NCBI GenBank assembly: GCA_963775295.1
Contig: CAVZIK010000006.1
Location: 3,218,829 to 3,282,828, forward strand
Direction: 5' to 3'
DNA length: 64,000 nucleotides
Source of the DNA: an uncultured Actinomycetes bacterium
GTDB lineage: Bacteria; Actinomycetota; Thermoleophilia; RBG-16-64-13
Both the position numbers and the translations under genes were made by a program. The notes under the pieces are model-generated. The model made no database searches. It was given only the letters and a program-made list of their open reading frames with translations, and had not been told where the DNA came from. The first letter of the stretch is position 1. Each line of letters begins with the position of its first letter. Below are positions 2,740 through 8,894 of this stretch, piece after piece.

Positions 2740-3180
2740 CTAATCCCTCTGAACGTACACCTTGAATTTGACATTGCCGAGTCCGCCATACTTGATCCCT
2801 TGATCGAGGCAACTTGCGAACTGCGCCTGCCCGTCGTTGGGATCTAGCCCCTCACTCATGCGATCCCACGCTTGGTGCACCAAATCCGCGACCGGTCCAA
2901 TCGCCTTGATACAGAGGGGGCAATCGGATTCTTTCGGCAGCAGCATGGCCGGGAGAGCCTGCATAACTAACTTCTGGCCGACCTTGCACCCCGCCGAGCA
3001 GAACTTTGACTCCGTGACCTCGGCGATGATCTTGGCTTGGGCTATCTCCTCTTGGTGAGCAATTAGGCGCCGGTTGAATCCGAAGCTGATGTGCTCCTCG
3101 AATTCGGCATCCGACATCCCCATAGTTTGCTTGAGACCCAATGCGGCTTGCCGCGCGGCCTCGATGTCGATATCTGTCAT
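2740..3180 (-). CDS. Cys-rich hypothetical protein, TIGR04076-like
   Basis: Pattern AEVTESKFCSAGCKVGQK...CPLCIKA...SCLD...GNVKFKV resembles the TIGR04076 family. Start inferred from the RBS TAAGGA. Confidence 0.6.
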   Translation of the reverse strand: MTDIDIEAARQAALGLKQTMGMSDAEFEEHISFGFNRRLIAHQEEIAQAKIIAEVTESKFCSAGCKVGQKLVMQALPAMLLPKESDCPLCIKAIGPVADLVHQAWDRMSEGLDPNDGQAQFASCLDQGIKYGGLGNVKFKVYVQRD

Positions 3181-3267
3181 CTCGCCGTCCTTAGGCTCGC
3201 TTTTCACGATGCCTAAGGATAGATCATCGTCCAATCTCCCGCCCTCGAGGAGACCGAGTTGAAGCAA

Positions 3268-3996
3268 TCAACCCTGAAGTGGCTGCCCTTCGACAAAGCG
3301 ATATCCCACACCCTGCTCGGTGAGTAAGTACCTTGGGTCGGCCGGATCGTCCTCTAGTTTGCGCCGCAGATTTGCGACGTACATTCGGGGATAGTGTGTC
3401 TGGGTGGAGCAGCCCGGCCCCCAAACCTCTTCCAGCAGATACCGGTGTGTCAGCACCTTGCCCGATTTCTTGATAAACGTGGTCAGCAAACGATATTCGA
3501 TAGGAGTCAGGTGAACGATCTCTCCCCGCAGGGTCACGAGGCGGCTCGCCAGATCCACGACCAGATCACCGGCTTCAAAGCGGGAGGAGTCGTCCCGGGT
3601 GCCGTCTTTTAACACAGCTGCGTGCCGCAGAGCCACCTTCACCCGCGCGAGCAATTCCGGCACACCGAATGGTTTCGTGAGGTAGTCGTCAGCTCCGGAA
3701 TTAAGCGCGTCGACCTTGTCGCTCTCCTGATCTCTCGCAGAGAGAACGATGATCGGCACCTGCGACCACTCCCTCACTCGTGTGAGGACCGTCGTGCCGT
3801 CGGAATCCGGGAGACCTAAGTCAAGAAGGATTAGGTCGGGAGGCTGGCCGAGCACCATGGTGAACGCGTCGTGAGCATTCCCGGCCTCAGCCACCTGATA
3901 TCCCTCGTGCAGAAGGGCGGCCCGCAGGAAACGTCTCATGGGAACCTCGTCCTCAACGATGAGGACACTCACACCCGCCACGGATTCTCTAGCCAT
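3268..3996 (-). CDS. kdpE: OmpR-family response regulator KdpE
   Basis: VLIVEDE, LILLDLGLPD, GADDYLTKPF, HLTPIEYRLL, LRRKLEDDPADPRYLLTEQGVGYRF. Lies downstream of kdpD. Confidence 0.93.
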   Translation of the reverse strand: MARESVAGVSVLIVEDEVPMRRFLRAALLHEGYQVAEAGNAHDAFTMVLGQPPDLILLDLGLPDSDGTTVLTRVREWSQVPIIVLSARDQESDKVDALNSGADDYLTKPFGVPELLARVKVALRHAAVLKDGTRDDSSRFEAGDLVVDLASRLVTLRGEIVHLTPIEYRLLTTFIKKSGKVLTHRYLLEEVWGPGCSTQTHYPRMYVANLRRKLEDDPADPRYLLTEQGVGYRFVEGQPLQG

Positions 3997-4036
3997 TGTC
4001 CTCTCCAACAGCGATCAACGCGTAGCACACCTCGGG

Positions 4037-6058
4037 CTAAACCGACCGATTGTCACTAGCAATGCAGGCATCTTCCCCCAGTTCAAGATCGCCCGGGGGA
4101 GAACCAAGGGGAAGAGTGAAGGAGAACACCGCCCCGCCGTCAGGACGGTTTGCGGCGCAGATGTGACCACCGTGAGCGAGGACGATCGCACGTGCAATCG
4201 CGAGACCGAGGCCTGCACCGCGAGCAACATGCGCGGAGGCACTTCCTCGGTATAGCTTCTCGAAAATGGCGTCCGCTTCACCCTCCGACAGTCCCGGGCC
4301 TCGATCGGCTACCTCTATCTTGAGCTCATCCGAGGTCGAACTGATAAGCAAGTCTATCGGGCTGTCGGGCTTCGAGTACTTGGCGGCGTTTTCGAGGAGA
4401 TTGAAGAGGACCTGTTCGATCATCACACCGTCGAGTTGGACGAGAGGGAGAGCCTCCGACCAGTGCTTCTGTACTACCCTGTCCGGGCTCACCTTCCTTA
4501 GCCGCCCGAGCGCAGAGCCCACGACGTCCTCCACAGGAAACCACTCTGCGGCAACCTTTATCTCGCCCGAGTCGAGCCGCGTCATGGCCAGAAGATTCTC
4601 GACCAACCTGGTAAGCCGGTTGGACTCCTCGTAGACCTCCGCGATCAGTCCTGCTTTGGTCTCGCGGTCGCCTCCATCTCCCAGTTGAAGCAAGGTGCTG
4701 GCCGTACCCGAGATGACAGCCAGAGGAGTGCGCAAATCGTGCGAAACAGCGCTCAACAAGGAGCTGCGCATCCTCTCGGTTTCGGCTTCGAGAACCGCTT
4801 TTTGACTCGTTTCGGCGAGCATGTCGCGTTCGATAGCGATGCCGATCTGAGTGGCGGCCGCTTCCAACAACTGCTGGTTCTCCAGGGCGCCAAGGACGTC
4901 TTCCGGAGCCTCGACCGAAAGCACCCCTACCATTCCGTGCGCCGTGATCATGGGCGTATGAAGCGAGGCCGCGCCGGAAACAGCTTGCGTCCCCCGTCCA
5001 GCCGGTTCTCCGTGCCGAAAGGCCCACGTGGCCGCGTCCCGCTCCGCACCGGTGGTGTGTTGATCCTGTACTTTCTCCTCTAGAGTCTGATCTGGCCGAG
5101 GCAGGTAGATCTCCACCGGGCTGTCGAATACTCCCCCCATCTCCGTCTCCGCTACACGAAGTATCTCACCGACACCCGAGACGCCGGACAATCCGCGCGT
5201 GAGCCGATAAAGAGCTTCGAGGCGACGCTCCCTGGCTCTTGCTGTTTCCACCTGCCGTCGCAGACGCGCTGCAAGCGTCCCCACGAGGAGGGCCACCGCG
5301 GCCATGACCACGAGGGTGACAAGGTACTGGATGTCCTGCACCGCGAGTGTGAAACGTGGTGGCACGAAGAAGAAGTCGAAAGCCAGTACCGACGCCACCG
5401 CCGCGAGGACCCCAGGCCCAAGCCCCCATGAGATCGCGGCCGCCACCACCGCTGGAATGAAGACAACGGCCCTGTTTGCCTCGGAAAGACCGGCCTCCTC
5501 GAGCAAGAGCGCTACCAGGCACGCGACGATGACCGCGCCCACCGCGCCCGCATATCCTCGCCAAGTCGCCCGTCCCCGACGCGATGGGCTTGACCGCTTA
5601 GCGGACCCGCCCGTGCCTTGGACTACGTAGATGTCGATGTCACCACTCAGCCGCAGAAGTCGCTCCACAATGCTCGTTCTGAAGAGCCGAAGCCAGCGAC
5701 GATCCGTAGACTTGCCTATGACGATCCTGGTCACGCCCCGGGAGCGCGCATAACCGATTATGCCTTGTGCAACGTCGTGGCCCGACAGGTTAACCACCTC
5801 GGCTCCGAGGCGTCTGGCCAGATGGATGTTCTCCATCAGTTGGTGCCTCTCGACCGGATCCAGTTCGCTCGTCTGGCGGGTCTCGACACTCGCAGCAACC
5901 CAATGCGCATTCAAAGAGAATGCCATTCGCTGGGAACTACGAATCACCCTGGCGGAAGTGGGACTGGGGCCGATGCATACAAGAAGCATCTCCGGGGTTG
6001 GTCCGGCATCTCGGGAACCATCTTCGGCTGATCTGCCGGCCTCAGGGTGGGTGGACAC
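4037..6058 (-). CDS. kdpD: KdpD-like sensor histidine kinase lacking the N-terminal KdpD domain (USP-DUF4118 TM-GAF-HisKA-HATPase)
   Basis: LLVCIGPSPTS USP domain, AFDFFFVPPRFT (DUF4118), SAVSHDLRTPL H-box, NLLENAAKYS, DRGPG, GLGLAIA. Start uncertain: GTG 6058 follows GGGGGAGG, while the ORF track opens at 6172. Confidence 0.9.
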   Translation of the reverse strand: MSTHPEAGRSAEDGSRDAGPTPEMLLVCIGPSPTSARVIRSSQRMAFSLNAHWVAASVETRQTSELDPVERHQLMENIHLARRLGAEVVNLSGHDVAQGIIGYARSRGVTRIVIGKSTDRRWLRLFRTSIVERLLRLSGDIDIYVVQGTGGSAKRSSPSRRGRATWRGYAGAVGAVIVACLVALLLEEAGLSEANRAVVFIPAVVAAAISWGLGPGVLAAVASVLAFDFFFVPPRFTLAVQDIQYLVTLVVMAAVALLVGTLAARLRRQVETARARERRLEALYRLTRGLSGVSGVGEILRVAETEMGGVFDSPVEIYLPRPDQTLEEKVQDQHTTGAERDAATWAFRHGEPAGRGTQAVSGAASLHTPMITAHGMVGVLSVEAPEDVLGALENQQLLEAAATQIGIAIERDMLAETSQKAVLEAETERMRSSLLSAVSHDLRTPLAVISGTASTLLQLGDGGDRETKAGLIAEVYEESNRLTRLVENLLAMTRLDSGEIKVAAEWFPVEDVVGSALGRLRKVSPDRVVQKHWSEALPLVQLDGVMIEQVLFNLLENAAKYSKPDSPIDLLISSTSDELKIEVADRGPGLSEGEADAIFEKLYRGSASAHVARGAGLGLAIARAIVLAHGGHICAANRPDGGAVFSFTLPLGSPPGDLELGEDACIASDNRSV

Positions 6059-6127
6059 GGCCTCCCCCGAAAACTCGGTGTCTTGTCTGTGCTCAGGCAA
6101 GGCAAGTGTACTCTCGGAATAGCTGCC

Positions 6128-6153
6128 TCTTACATTCTTACAGCCTTTATGCA
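6128..6153. promoter_or_regulatory. Candidate KdpE-binding AT-rich repeat in the divergent kdpD / kimA-operon promoter region
   Basis: TCTTACA at 6128-6134 and 6136-6142, followed by TTTATGC at 6146-6152. Resembles the TTTA(C/T)A half-sites of the E. coli KdpE site, but the spacing is not canonical. Confidence 0.35.
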
Positions 6154-6207
6154 TTTTGGGCGTCTTTCTCAATCCGCCCTATATGCGCGCAGTGCGATGC
6201 TTCTTAT

Positions 6208-6642
6208 ATGAACCGAAAGCCCCCGCGTATCACTGTTCTGCTCTTCGTTGCGCAAATGAACACGATCGCCGCGCAAGCTCTCGCCTATGGCGCTTCGCTC
6301 GCGGCCGAGAGGTTTGAGGCGGTGTCCGTGGCCGTGGACCCGAGAGCGGTGGAGCGACTGCGAGAGGACTGGGTGTCTCTTGGTGTGCGGGTCCCGCTCG
6401 TGATCGTCGAATCCACCGGCCAGGGGTTCTTGGGACCGGCGACGCGCTATGTCCGTTCGCTTGGACCCGCCCCCGATCACTCGATCGTGGTGCTCATACC
6501 GGAATTGGTGGTCGATCACTGGTACGCAACGATCTTCCACAACCAGAGCGAGGCGAGGTTGAAGGCCGCGCTTCAGGACATCCCGTGGGTGGTCGTCGTG
6601 AGCGTCCCGCTGCACTATCCCCAAACTCAGAAGAGTGAGTGA
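6208..6642 (+). CDS. Stand-alone paralog of the KimA C-terminal cytoplasmic domain (144 aa)
   Basis: Ungapped manual alignment to the C-terminus of the adjacent KimA gives about 60/132 identities (LFVAQ, VPL, PE, HW, HNQ, RLKAAL, PWVVV). ATG at 6208; the stop lies 6 nt before the kimA start. Confidence 0.85.
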   Translation: MNRKPPRITVLLFVAQMNTIAAQALAYGASLAAERFEAVSVAVDPRAVERLREDWVSLGVRVPLVIVESTGQGFLGPATRYVRSLGPAPDHSIVVLIPELVVDHWYATIFHNQSEARLKAALQDIPWVVVVSVPLHYPQTQKSE

Positions 6643-6648
6643 ACAGAC

Positions 6649-8529
6649 TTGAACTCAAGGCCTCAAACAATCAAGCGAATGCTGCTGGGCCGACCGATTC
6701 CGAATTCGGAGGAGCAACATCAGAGGCTGTCTAAGAAAACAGCACTCTCGATCTTCTCGTCAGACGCCATTTCCTCGAGCGCGTACGCCACGGAAGAGAT
6801 ACTGTTCGTGCTCGTCGGCGCGGGCGTGGTTCTGTCAAGAGCCTCGTTGTATATCAGTCTGGCGGTCGTGGCGCTCCTCGCAATCGTGGTCCTCTCCTAC
6901 CAGCAAACCATCCGGGCCTACCCGAGCGGTGGCGGATCATACATCGTGAGCACCGCCAATCTGGGCAGAGCGCCAGGCCTGATCGCCGCGGCTGCGCTCA
7001 TGATCGACTATGTGATGACCGTGGCAGTCAGTGTCGCCGCGGGTGTCGCCGCCGTCACCTCCGCTCTGCCCGCCGCATACCCATATCGAGTGATCATCTC
7101 CGTGGTTGTGATCGCACTCGTCACTCTCATTAACCTGCGTGGGATCCGAGAATCGGGCAAGGTGTTCGTCACCCCGACGTACGGGTTCATCATCATGGCG
7201 GGTGGTCTAGTGATCGTGGGCACAGCACGCTGGCTCTCAGGTTCTCTGCATGTCCCGAGCGCCTTGCCAACGGCACCCGGCGGTAGTCTCGGAGTATTGG
7301 GCTTCTTTCTCTTGCTGCGGGCGTTCACCGCGGGATGTACCACCCTCACCGGAACCGAGGCCATCTCTAACGGCGTCCCCGCCTTCAAGCCACCGGAGAG
7401 TCGCAACGCCTCGATCACATTGGGAGTTATGGCGGTCATCCTCGGCACGCTCCTTCTCGGCGTGACGAACCTTTCGCAAGTTCTGCATTTGGAACCCAAC
7501 GCGCAGCAAACGATCCTTAGTCAGCTGGGTCGGGCCGTATATGGGGACGGAAGTTTCTTCTATTACGCGCTCCAGATCACCACCATGGCTATCTTGTTCC
7601 TGGCGGCGAATACGAGCTTCGCCGACTTCCCACGCCTGTCCTTCATCTTGGCGCGTGACGGACTCATGCCACGGCAGTTCATGAATCGTGGGGACAAGCT
7701 GGCCTTCTCCAACGGCATAATCGGCCTCGCACTCTTGTCTGTCTTGATCGTCGTCATCTTCGGCGCCAATGTGACTCGGATGATTCCCCTCTACGCCGTG
7801 GGTGTGTTCGTGAGCTTCACCCTTTCGCAGGCCGGCATGGTCGTGCACTGGTTCAAAGTTCGAGGGGATGGGTGGCGGCACCGCGCTGTCATGAACGGAG
7901 TAGGAGCAGCCGCGACCGCTGTTGTCGCAGGGATGCAAATGATCACCAAGTTCGTGGAAGGCGCATTCATCGTCCTCATTGCCGGCGCCATCCTCGTATT
8001 CCTGCTCGACCGCATCAGCCGCCACTACCGGCGGGTGGGCCGAATCTTCTCCCCCACGACGATCGATCGCGCGCGGCTGTCTTCGATCGCGCGTTTGCGG
8101 CCGCGCACGACAGTCATATTGTTCGTTGCTCAAGTGAACGAGCTCACAGCCAGGGCCATCTCCATGGGACGCGCAATCGCGCCCGACGACGTTCGCGCCG
8201 TCAACATCAGCAGCGATCCCGATCAGGCGAACCGCCTCAAAGAGACATGGGACGAGATGAAGCTGGGCGTGCCTCTGCTCGTCGTCGATTCTCCGTTTCG
8301 TGAGTTCATTCGTCCCGCCGTGGAATACATTCAGTCGCTCGAGCCCGGTCCAGAGCGATCAGTGACGGTGATTGTGCCGGAGTTCATCGTGGAACATTGG
8401 TGGGAACACTTGCTGCACAATCAGAACGCCTTTCGCCTCAAGGCGGCTCTCCTCGGTCTGCCGTGGGTCGTAGTGACCAGCGTCCCGTTCCACATCGGGC
8501 GTAGCGATACCCCGACGACCCATACATAA
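6649..8529 (+). CDS. kimA: KimA/YdaO-type K+ transporter (APC superfamily, KUP-related)
   Basis: KRMLLGRP, FSSDAISSSAYATEEI, YPSGGGSY, DYVMTVAVS, TGTEAISNGVPAFKPPE, ANTSFADFPRL, IPLYAVGVF, LLHNQ. Confidence 0.93.
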   Translation: MNSRPQTIKRMLLGRPIPNSEEQHQRLSKKTALSIFSSDAISSSAYATEEILFVLVGAGVVLSRASLYISLAVVALLAIVVLSYQQTIRAYPSGGGSYIVSTANLGRAPGLIAAAALMIDYVMTVAVSVAAGVAAVTSALPAAYPYRVIISVVVIALVTLINLRGIRESGKVFVTPTYGFIIMAGGLVIVGTARWLSGSLHVPSALPTAPGGSLGVLGFFLLLRAFTAGCTTLTGTEAISNGVPAFKPPESRNASITLGVMAVILGTLLLGVTNLSQVLHLEPNAQQTILSQLGRAVYGDGSFFYYALQITTMAILFLAANTSFADFPRLSFILARDGLMPRQFMNRGDKLAFSNGIIGLALLSVLIVVIFGANVTRMIPLYAVGVFVSFTLSQAGMVVHWFKVRGDGWRHRAVMNGVGAAATAVVAGMQMITKFVEGAFIVLIAGAILVFLLDRISRHYRRVGRIFSPTTIDRARLSSIARLRPRTTVILFVAQVNELTARAISMGRAIAPDDVRAVNISSDPDQANRLKETWDEMKLGVPLLVVDSPFREFIRPAVEYIQSLEPGPERSVTVIVPEFIVEHWWEHLLHNQNAFRLKAALLGLPWVVVTSVPFHIGRSDTPTTHT

Positions 8530-8612
8530 AAGCCCCGCTCGGGCCGGCTTCGAGCATGCGTTTTGCGGGTACCACTGTCCCCGATGAACCCGCCCCGCAA
8601 CCCGCGGGGTTG

Positions 8613-8632
8613 TAGAATACCTACCGGGGTAA
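8613..8632 (+). promoter_or_regulatory. -10 element (TAGAAT) overlapped by a CsoR-family-like operator
   Basis: TAGAAT at 8613-8618 followed by ATACCTACCGGGGTAA (TACC-N6-GGTA with a G-tract), upstream of the glutaredoxin gene. Confidence 0.45.
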
Positions 8633-8657
8633 CCTCGTCGTCGATGTGGAGCCTAAA

Positions 8658-8894
8658 ATGGCAGTCATTGTGTACTCATCACCCACTTGCAGGTTCTGCG
8701 TGGCCGCTAAGCGATACCTCAAGGACCATAAGATTCGGTTTCGCGACCTGGATATATCACGAGACCCGGGTTTGGCCGCCGAGATGAAACGGAAGAGCGG
8801 ACAGCAAGGCGTCCCGGTGATTGATGTCAATGGACATGTGATTGTTGGGTTCGATAAACGCCGTTTGAATGCCGCTCTGGGCATCAAAGACTAA
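8658..8894 (+). CDS. Glutaredoxin-like protein (NrdH/YruB family)
   Basis: VIVYSSPTCRFC CxxC, SGQQGVPVIDVNG, IVGFD. ATG at 8658 follows TGGAG. Confidence 0.9.
   Translation: MAVIVYSSPTCRFCVAAKRYLKDHKIRFRDLDISRDPGLAAEMKRKSGQQGVPVIDVNGHVIVGFDKRRLNAALGIKD

Follow-up and report, generated by a model that had tools for sequence, protein, structure and literature searches.

An apparently conserved gene for a free-standing, degenerate KimA-type cytoplasmic domain upstream of kimA in uncultured Actinomycetota

Introduction

Why would a bacterium keep a gene for nothing but the regulatory domain of a potassium transporter, directly upstream of a gene for the entire transporter? The question is raised by a 64-kb stretch of DNA (G000:C6:3218829-3282828, on contig C6 of genome G000), here called the window, from an uncultured Thermoleophilia-like member of the Actinomycetota; positions given without a contig or locus name are those of the window. 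A small open reading frame (ORF) at 6208–6642 resembles the cytoplasmic domain (CD) of KimA, and a kimA gene follows at 6649–8529. The name CD* is used for the free-standing, degenerate clade of such domains that includes the product of the small ORF. KimA is the structural model both for KUP-family K+ transporters and for inhibition by cyclic di-AMP (c-di-AMP), and so far its regulation has been understood only for a dimer that is symmetric and domain-swapped, with tethered domains. A gene that conserves nothing but the regulatory domain would be a natural experiment on the roles of the CD beyond nucleotide binding. The most likely role of CD*, to which we would give about an even chance (the identity of the domain included), is that of a pseudo-CD made in trans that pairs with the canonical CD of KimA.

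A gene for the cytoplasmic domain alone

The features concerned are the following.

6208..6642, plus strand: CD*, degenerate free KimA-type CD, 144 aa, ATG to TGA
6649..8529, plus strand: kimA, KUP-family K+/H+ symporter homologue, 626 aa, TTG start, canonical CD
8537..8555, plus strand: terminator-like hairpin, 3' of kimA

The original prediction, made from the sequence alone, was that the 144-aa gene encodes the KimA CD and nothing else, and this is what the alignments give: the homology is confined to the CD. In BLASTP, residues 3–136 of CD* align with residues 482–615 of the 626-aa KimA of the window with 61/134 identities (46%), 93/134 positives, no gaps and an E value of 2e-41, which agrees with the earlier hand count of 60/132 (gapless, about 45%). 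The same alignment has the motifs HNQ and RLKAAL retained and SPFR replaced by STGQ, as had been read before. Against the solved KimA chain 6S3K_B, phmmer matches residues 475–605 only (E 1.1e-7). No Pfam and no NCBIfam family matches CD*.

The downstream gene is by homology a KimA, for which K+ uptake and inhibition by c-di-AMP are predicted. Its product matches the solved structures 6S3K, 8B70 and 8B71 in the Protein Data Bank (PDB) over almost the full length (phmmer E 7.7e-138, residues 7–616 against 4–605 of 6S3K_B), that is, over the APC-fold domain of 12 transmembrane helices (TM1 to TM12) and the C-terminal CD, with both the equivalent of Arg337 (in 'MPR') and HNQ present in the alignment. 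In Pfam it matches AA_permease_2 only (E 4e-29). It is 83% identical to its orthologue in G001, a metagenome-assembled genome (MAG) of the same genus. A second full-length kimA lies elsewhere in G000.

The TGA stop of CD* is followed by 6 nt and then by the start codon of kimA, which is TTG or GTG in the G000/G001 pair. A terminator scan found a site only after kimA and none between the two genes; given this and the short gap, CD* and kimA are taken to form one operon. The conserved 'SE-stop' C-terminus of CD* overlaps a purine-rich stretch before the kimA start (6640–6651; about 6095–6110 in locus L020). In both genomes a single TGA plus two codons separates the ORFs, which share a reading frame. 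An explanation by stop-codon read-through, in which CD* and KimA would come out as a single polypeptide carrying a CD at each end, would build on this arrangement. Such read-through is highly improbable: two ORFs are in frame by chance in one case out of three, G000 and G001 do not count as independent cases, there are free CD* genes that no kimA follows, and no recoding signal was seen, although no search was aimed at one.

Selection on the small gene

The small ORF is found again in G001, directly upstream of kimA and 61% identical to CD*. Between the two genomes it has a dN of 0.32 and a dS of 1.3–1.6, which is saturated, so that the ratio of non-synonymous to synonymous rates (omega) is 0.22–0.25; for KimA and its own CD omega is 0.06–0.08. 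Identity by codon position is 97, 113 and 67 of 142 (0.68/0.80/0.47, chi-square p 5e-8). The omega value and the codon-position pattern together argue that the protein sequence of CD* is under selection. Another pair, L062 and the copy in G008, has an omega of 0.29. Across CD* sequences that are 35–78% identical to the window copy, the fold-defining residues are invariant. By these signs CD* appears to be a real, old and conserved gene kept under purifying selection, and the original view of a maintained gene rather than a recent fragment is borne out also by about 19 free homologues and by the predicted CD fold. That the ORF might be unique to this genome, with a dN/dS near 1, had been named as the finding that would speak against this view; the orthologue in G001, the approximately 19 clusters and the dN/dS of 0.22–0.25 say otherwise.

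Fold, motifs and nucleotide pocket

The AlphaFold2 model of CD*, made from a 94-row alignment, has a predicted local distance difference test (pLDDT) score of 91.7. In Foldseek its best match in the PDB is KimA itself (8B70_A, query-normalised template-modelling score, TMq, 0.84, E 3e-10), followed by 8B71_A and 6S3K_A and, after these KimA structures, by nicotinate-nucleotide adenylyltransferase and pantothenate synthetase. The five-strand/four-helix topology of the CD is present in the predicted fold, in line with the published description of the CD of KimA as PPAT-like (PMC6994465). The model thus predicts a soluble domain with the fold of the KimA CD (nucleotidyltransferase/PPAT-like). Domains of the RCK type (TrkA_N, TrkA_C) had no Pfam match in CD*, and the fold search returned the KimA CD and adenylyltransferases, not RCK.

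Thirty-four fused CDs of this lineage were compared with 19 free CD*. In the fused CDs the S, P, R and E of the loop SP[FY]RE are each present in 34/34, whereas the loop is canonical in none of the 19 free ones, where it is degenerate (entropy 1.5–3.2 bits); in the window copy the position reads S-T-G-Q-G. The loop corresponds to residues 534–538, which are absent (disordered) in the 6S3K model, and it lies outside the predicted CD–CD interface. In the case of HNQ, all three residues are each found in 34/34 fused CDs, and in free CD* the H is kept in 13/19, the N in 18/19 and the Q in 10/19; the orthologue in G001 has HNH. From these comparisons CD* appears to keep the fold, to have lost the most conserved functional loop and to retain the nucleotide motif in part of the family only.

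The c-di-AMP pocket of Bacillus subtilis KimA is lined on the CD side by Pro479, Val506, Phe565, Phe568, His579, Asn580, Gln581 and Ser582, and it is completed by Arg337, Val457 and Leu461 from the membrane domain of the other protomer (PMC10284832). The eight CD positions read F, V, I, L, H, N, Q and S in the window copy of CD*; its H-N-Q-S aligns with His579, Asn580, Gln581 and Ser582, and its V41 with Val506. Because of these retained residues CD* could be an autonomous soluble receptor or sink for c-di-AMP, which buffers the nucleotide or signals to other targets. The G000 genome, which is 100% complete, encodes a diadenylate cyclase domain (C6:2090967) and has no c-di-AMP riboswitch (RF00379) anywhere, and both facts fit such a function. 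Still, a sink is unlikely. The pocket is not conserved within the family, as the counts for H and Q and the HNH of the same-genus orthologue show, the site in KimA takes in the three membrane-domain residues, and in vitro binding of c-di-AMP by B. subtilis KimA was seen only where some of the nucleotide had come along in the purification (PMC10284832). The earlier suggestion of a c-di-AMP sink is weakened by the same counts, by the SP[FY]RE loop being canonical in 0/19, and by a site that comes partly from the membrane domain (PMC10284832).

Distribution and genomic context

A word-index search gave two more relatives. An exhaustive protein search gave 1329 proteins at E<=0.001, mostly KimA C-termini, with short proteins as the top matches, and a profile built from short proteins matched 39 proteins at E<=1e-20. 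By inspection, about 19 of the 39 are free-standing CD* clusters of 144–280 aa, all unnamed or called 'hypothetical protein', and the rest are ordinary KimA fragments. A protein was taken as free-standing if its N-terminus was not TM12, if it shared the signature centred on 'DRFEAV' and if it had no SP[FY]R loop. The lineage that carries CD* consists of Gaiellales-like MAGs of the Actinomycetota, class Thermoleophilia; since the family is small and confined to such uncultured Thermoleophilia-like Actinomycetota, its reach is limited. In the ESM Atlas, the clusters nearest to CD* are unnamed proteins of about 130–150 aa with 458, 53 and 139 members, which are a lead only and are possibly gene fragments.

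At the level of DNA, a scan of species genomes gave 23 loci, two of them with a free CD (G001, and a frameshifted one at G008:C38) and the rest with kimA genes. A scan of metagenomes gave 19 loci, again two with a free CD (L060 and L062); loci L076-L078 matched residues 3–48 only and were left out. A CD match at E<=1e-25 is present in 39/401 genomes of the class. The short frames G014, G008:C26, G005 and G017 were considered as free CDs and rejected, as each continues into KimA membrane-domain sequence in another frame. In L060 and L062 the CD* gene is convergent with a cluster of trkA, trkA and a P-type cation ATPase gene, and at G008:C38 it lies 4.7 kb from kdpA-kdpBC-kdpD-kdpE, with a Ser/Thr kinase gene and a DUF2254 gene in between. 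Every context of CD* for which DNA is available is thus K+- or cation-related, and kimA is adjacent in two only. The synteny that the original prediction proposed to look for holds for the CD*-kimA pair of G001 and is incomplete otherwise, with kimA adjacent in 2/5 loci and the link to the neighbouring kdpD/kdpE-like genes (called kdpD'/kdpE' below) present in 2/4 genomes.

Origin of the free domain

In a tree of 47 CDs, a single clade unites all 11 free CDs and two fused ones (the KimA of G006:C132 and the fragment P0011), its support being 100 in the Shimodaira–Hasegawa-like approximate likelihood ratio test (SH-aLRT), and the other 34 CDs, whether from the upstream or downstream copy of a tandem pair or from a single kimA, fall outside it. 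The support for the clade is 99 in a tree of 109 rows. The kimA of G006 that belongs here, written kimA*, is full-length and divergent from the orthologues of kdpD'/kdpE', in the same position as the small ORF of the window. This position, its place in the clade and a leader block common to G000, G001 and G006 (described below with the intergenic region) argue that CD* goes back to a second kimA from which the membrane domain was lost. The simplest history suggested by the sequences would be that, in the lineage leading to this genus, a kimA* beside kdpD'E' was stripped of the membrane domain while its promoter region and CD stayed. The original prediction had named a broken second kimA in relatives, of which CD* would be the tail, as a finding that would count against a functional gene. 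In evolutionary terms such an ancestor is indeed indicated by G006, but the truncation appears to be old and the product conserved.

In a tree of membrane domains, KimA* of G006, the KimA of the window, that of G001 and four upstream copies of tandem pairs form one clade (support 99). An approximately unbiased (AU) test did not reject a topology that holds the CDs of this KimA subclade together with CD* (p 0.40), and CD* may be a fast-evolving offshoot of the subclade to which the KimA of the window belongs. That CD* is the tail of a broken upstream copy of a tandem kimA pair was also considered, and was rejected because CD* does not group with the tandem-upstream CDs.

It is worth noting that MAGs of the family often carry a tandem pair of full-length kimA genes (L021, L022, L023, L024, L038-L040, L045, L046, L048, L050, L061, L064, L065, L067, L070, L071), spaced anywhere between an overlap of 4 nt and a gap of about 116 nt. 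Given the domain-swapped dimer of KimA, the two products of such a pair might combine into a heterodimer.

KimA homologues with two cytoplasmic domains

Among the best 150 of the 1329 matches there are 40 proteins with at least two matched stretches, of which 36 were taken and four (P0033, P0047, P0090, P0095) left out. All but one of the 36 hold two tandem CD-like domains (35/36; P0061 has one); they include P0013, P0016, P0017, P0019-P0021, P0023, P0027-P0029, P0032 and P0037. At least seven of the two-CD proteins are complete transporters of 756–858 aa, and AA_permease_2 was confirmed in Pfam for five. The first, membrane-proximal CD has a canonical loop in 0/26 covered cases and HNQ in 3/35, and the second has the loop in 34/35, HNQ in 27/35 and the H in 35/35. 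Judged by these motifs, the combination of a degenerate and a canonical CD recurs in the KimA family, and the degenerate one appears to have lost the same motifs as CD*. The two-CD proteins would be a parallel natural experiment, in which the degenerate CD always comes with a canonical one.

These proteins resemble the window module in combining a degenerate with a canonical CD and in having lost the same loop and often HNQ. They differ in that both CDs follow the membrane domain within a single chain, whereas here the degenerate CD is a separate upstream gene, and in that their origins are independent of CD*. Degenerate CDs of KimA, whether free or in tandem, were not found described in the literature searched, which comprised excerpts of PMC6994465, PMC10284832, PMC11018627 and PMC10117811.

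Two further kinds of fusion were seen. P0144, P0106 and P0152 have an N-terminal KimA-type CD followed by a TRAM domain, and in P0144 there is also a methyltransferase-like region; these are either fusions or gene-calling artefacts. P0063, a metagenomic protein of 574 aa known from a single cluster, carries the end of KimA TM12, two CDs and then DUF4118 (the KdpD-type membrane domain) in one chain, and looks like a natural fusion of KimA with a KdpD-like protein.

Pairing of the free domain with KimA

Residues 462–626 of KimA and CD* were submitted to complex prediction, each with its own alignment, in three runs. The median score was 0.62, compared with 0.00 for the best control; the mark used for this score is reached by 116/157 solved complexes and by 2/215 mismatched pairs. 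At least 81% of the contacts are common to the runs, with a partner pLDDT of at least 77. The predicted interface is built from the KimA linker after TM12, from helix 1 and, in both domains, from the last strand, and it matches that of the solved KimA homodimer, in which the CD–CD interface is formed by linker, helix 1 and last strand (PMC6994465). In the model, CD* still looks competent to form a dimer.

Under the reading preferred here, CD* and kimA would be expressed from one operon, with CD* as a pseudo-CD that lacks the SP[FY]RE loop. CD* would pair with the canonical CD of KimA through the CD–CD beta-sheet and linker interface, and the resulting asymmetric CD pair, with one canonical nucleotide pocket, would replace the symmetric domain-swapped homodimer or compete with it. 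Such pairing may tune the assembly of KimA or its gating by c-di-AMP. The module would then be a split version of the two-CD KimA, in which a degenerate CD is followed by a canonical CD in one chain, and its transcription may be under a Kdp-independent kdpD'/kdpE' pair, which the present data suggest weakly. A broader view is that asymmetric CD pairs evolved repeatedly and that the one described here is split and co-translated, CD* taking the place of the other protomer's domain so that the transporter has a single c-di-AMP site, and is switched by a KdpD paralog without the serine-kinase domain. As a whole this view seems doubtful; if it is true, the locus holds a so far undescribed module for the control of K+ uptake.

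Several observations weigh against the pairing of a maintained CD* with KimA. The modelling of KimA with the free domain that had been proposed did place the two together, but because the like complex has already been solved, the predictor may have reproduced the KimA homodimer that it had learned; what the result demonstrates is likeness rather than binding. Within the free family the predicted interface positions are more variable than the rest (mean entropy 1.51 versus 1.18, p 0.03). CD* does not derive from the first CDs of two-CD proteins but falls among the local KimAs with a single CD (support 99), so that its likeness to the two-CD proteins is convergent and not inherited. Intact free copies were seen in only 2/401 genomes of the class (G000 and G001, of one genus), a count that leaves out seven short frames (G210, G310, G244, G276, G295, G230, G159), and three of the five loci with DNA (L060, L062, G008:C38) have no adjacent kimA. 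The free domain evolves three to four times faster than the same domain within KimA. Between L060 and L062, two metagenome contigs that are almost identical, CD* has 18 non-synonymous and 10 synonymous differences, compared with 0 and 3 in the flanking trkA, and its omega of 0.47–0.63 cannot be told apart from neutrality (binomial p 0.14). Finally, two copies look broken, namely G008:C38 with one frameshift and P0015 with a divergent tail, and broken copies are under-counted as protein catalogues list only intact ORFs.

Some of these points would also fit a slowly decaying relic, an ORF that persists as the carrier of the kimA promoter, leader, ribosome-binding region and translational coupling and whose protein is functionless. 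CD* does derive from a truncated kimA on the evidence of the trees, it has lost a loop that is invariant elsewhere, its HNQ is eroding, and its fast evolution, near-neutral in L060/L062, comes together with the two copies that look broken; the overlap of its 'SE-stop' end with the purine-rich stretch, 6 nt from kimA, also suits a gene kept for its DNA. Nevertheless, a relic is fairly improbable. It does not agree with an omega of 0.22–0.25 and a classic codon-position pattern, with fold-defining residues that stay invariant at 35–78% identity, or with a confidently predicted fold. In addition, about 19 clusters are intact, some of them without a downstream kimA, and in those copies coupling cannot explain the retention.

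The L060/L062 pair shows one more peculiarity. CD* (L060 712-1191, L062 1798-2277) differs at 28 codons, with a dS of 0.107 compared with 0.018 for the adjacent trkA, which could be due to local hyper-divergence or recombination.

Comparison with KimA of B. subtilis and with RCK subunits

The CD of B. subtilis KimA (6S3K, 8B70, 8B71) shares with CD* the fold (template-modelling score 0.84), the HNQS pocket motif, the five-strand/four-helix topology and, as predicted, the CD–CD interface. Unlike it, CD* is encoded alone, without a membrane domain or TM12 linker, and has the SSYRS/SP[FY]RE loop replaced. The RCK/KTN regulators KtrA/TrkA and KhtT are soluble proteins of nucleotide-binding fold that are encoded with K+ transporters. 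As an analogy, CD* is likewise a predicted soluble protein of nucleotide-binding fold whose gene accompanies that of a K+ transporter, its putative target of regulation, but the two belong to unrelated fold families (RCK as opposed to KimA CD/PPAT-like), there is no sign of an octameric ring for CD*, and KimA here already has its own tethered regulatory domain. The pair KhtT/KhtU is mentioned in PMC10117811.

The neighbouring kdpD/kdpE-like pair

The genes on the other side of the small ORF, from which the CD*-kimA pair is divergent, are these.

3268..4008, minus strand: kdpE', OmpR-family regulator, KdpE paralog; Pfam Response_reg and Trans_reg_C
4037..5989 (ORF open to 6172), minus strand: kdpD', histidine kinase of the KdpD type that lacks the N-terminal KdpD (serine-kinase) domain
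5990..6207, no strand: divergent intergenic region, with a conserved block at about 6158–6207 and a 16-mer at 6138–6153

The original prediction called these genes kdpD and kdpE. The best NCBIfam models are indeed KdpD (477 bits against a cut-off of 1123, model positions 248–886 of 895) and KdpE (262.4 bits against 325), and the orientation is as described, but both fall below the cut-offs, they are paralogs with the kinase truncated at its N-terminus, and the canonical pair is elsewhere. In Pfam, kdpD' has Usp as its first domain (weak, 17.2 bits against a cut-off of 24), then DUF4118, GAF_3, HisKA and HATPase_c, so that the Usp-DUF4118-GAF-HisKA-HATPase core is present, and PF02702, the N-terminal KdpD domain with its Walker A/B serine kinase, has no match in kdpD'. 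The only strong PF02702 match in the G000 genome is at C6:3502920. About 273 kb away from the window pair there is a canonical kdpA-kdpB-kdpC-kdpD-kdpE operon, with a kdpD frame of 917 aa that includes PF02702, and the sole KdpA match in the whole genome falls outside the window, in line with the earlier remark that the window holds no kdpFABC. To the canonical KdpD and KdpE of the same genome kdpD' and kdpE' are 55% and 67% identical. With a kinase that lacks the KdpD domain and a canonical operon elsewhere, the pair of the window makes up a second system, paralogous to the first. In KdpD, the N-terminal domain acts on KdpB, which it phosphorylates as an atypical serine kinase (PMC11018627), and a paralog without it has therefore lost the part directed at KdpFABC; kdpD' is thus a KdpD paralog with a likely non-Kdp target. 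Compared with KdpD/KdpE as known, the pair has the same Usp-DUF4118-GAF-HisKA-HATPase kinase with an OmpR-type regulator, and it differs in the missing N-terminal domain, in not lying beside kdpFABC and in the scores below the NCBIfam cut-offs.

The receiver domain of kdpE' begins at residue 15 of ORF 3268–4008, and the exact start is not fixed. In kdpD', conservation with orthologues begins at ATG 5989, which is why the likely start is placed there, and a divergent intergenic region of 218 bp follows from it.

A kdpD' of the truncated type was found in four genomes. In G000 kdpD'E' adjoins CD*-kimA, and in G006 it adjoins kimA* (kdpD' is 62% and kdpE' 74% identical to those of the window). 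The orthologue in G244 has the same truncated architecture as that in G006, and the pair there has LssY_C and RNB flanks as in G006 but no kimA beside it. In G001 kdpD'E' is on another contig, which ends inside kdpD', and the contig with CD*-kimA has unrelated genes over the 7 kb upstream. The pair is thus adjacent to kimA or CD* in 2/4 carrier genomes (G000 and G006), so that regulation by KdpE' is plausible and not established. Control of the CD*-kimA operon by kdpD'/kdpE' remains plausible as a weak inference, and the earlier statement that KdpDE controls kimA has lost weight, both through this count and through the truncated, paralogous nature of the pair.

The adjacency also allows for another explanation, in which CD*, with its Usp-like nucleotide-binding fold, docks on the Usp/DUF4118 input region of KdpD' and modulates its signalling. 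CD* does adjoin kdpD' in the window, Usp is the first domain of KdpD', and P0063 joins two CDs to DUF4118 in one chain. That fusion is a single example, however, CD* is found without a nearby kdpD' in G001, L060, L062 and G008:C38, and in G244 kdpD' has neither CD* nor kimA, which makes a kinase accessory very unlikely.

In the intergenic region, a block of about 40 nt just upstream of CD* in G000 and G001 aligns with the region upstream of kimA* in G006; among shuffled sequences, 0/500, 1/500 and 23/500 reach the observed local score. The 16-mer at 6138–6153 resembles one upstream of the canonical kdp operon. A pattern derived from it has five matches in the genome, as many as its reversed control, and the remaining three matches are not beside recognisable K+ genes, as judged by ORF inspection only. 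As evidence, a KdpE box at this position was therefore rejected, the pattern being no commoner than the control, and it is kept as a weak lead. Rfam has no match in the window at the gathering score and, at E<=1 over 5850–6750, only a chance snoRNA match; with these searches of the window and the RF00379 search of the genome, a riboswitch or other RNA upstream of CD* was rejected. A scan for sigma-70 consensus sites over 5700–8800 gave none.

On the far side of the pair, a 175-aa ORF (2740–3267, minus strand) with a weak TIGR04076 match below the cut-off begins directly after the stop of kdpE', and a class-I methyltransferase gene comes after it (1852–2724). This arrangement is not kept beside kdpD'E' in G006; in the window, ORF 2740–3267 possibly shares an operon with kdpD'E'.

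Two loci of one genus, L089 (G006:C132) and L117 (G244:C4), have LssY_C, an RNB gene, kdpD' and kdpE' in shared order, and a kimA* of about 2 kb lies between the RNB gene and kdpD' in G006 only. As the gene is present in G006 and absent in G244, this is a presence/absence polymorphism.

One more observation concerns the kdp genes near the frameshifted CD* of G008:C38. There a single ORF of 904 aa (L113 7723-10437) holds both the KdpB (E1-E2 ATPase) and the KdpC domains, which is either a fusion or an assembly artefact, and the kdpB and kdpC of G000 match as separate pieces (L033 6203-8176 and 8170-8691).

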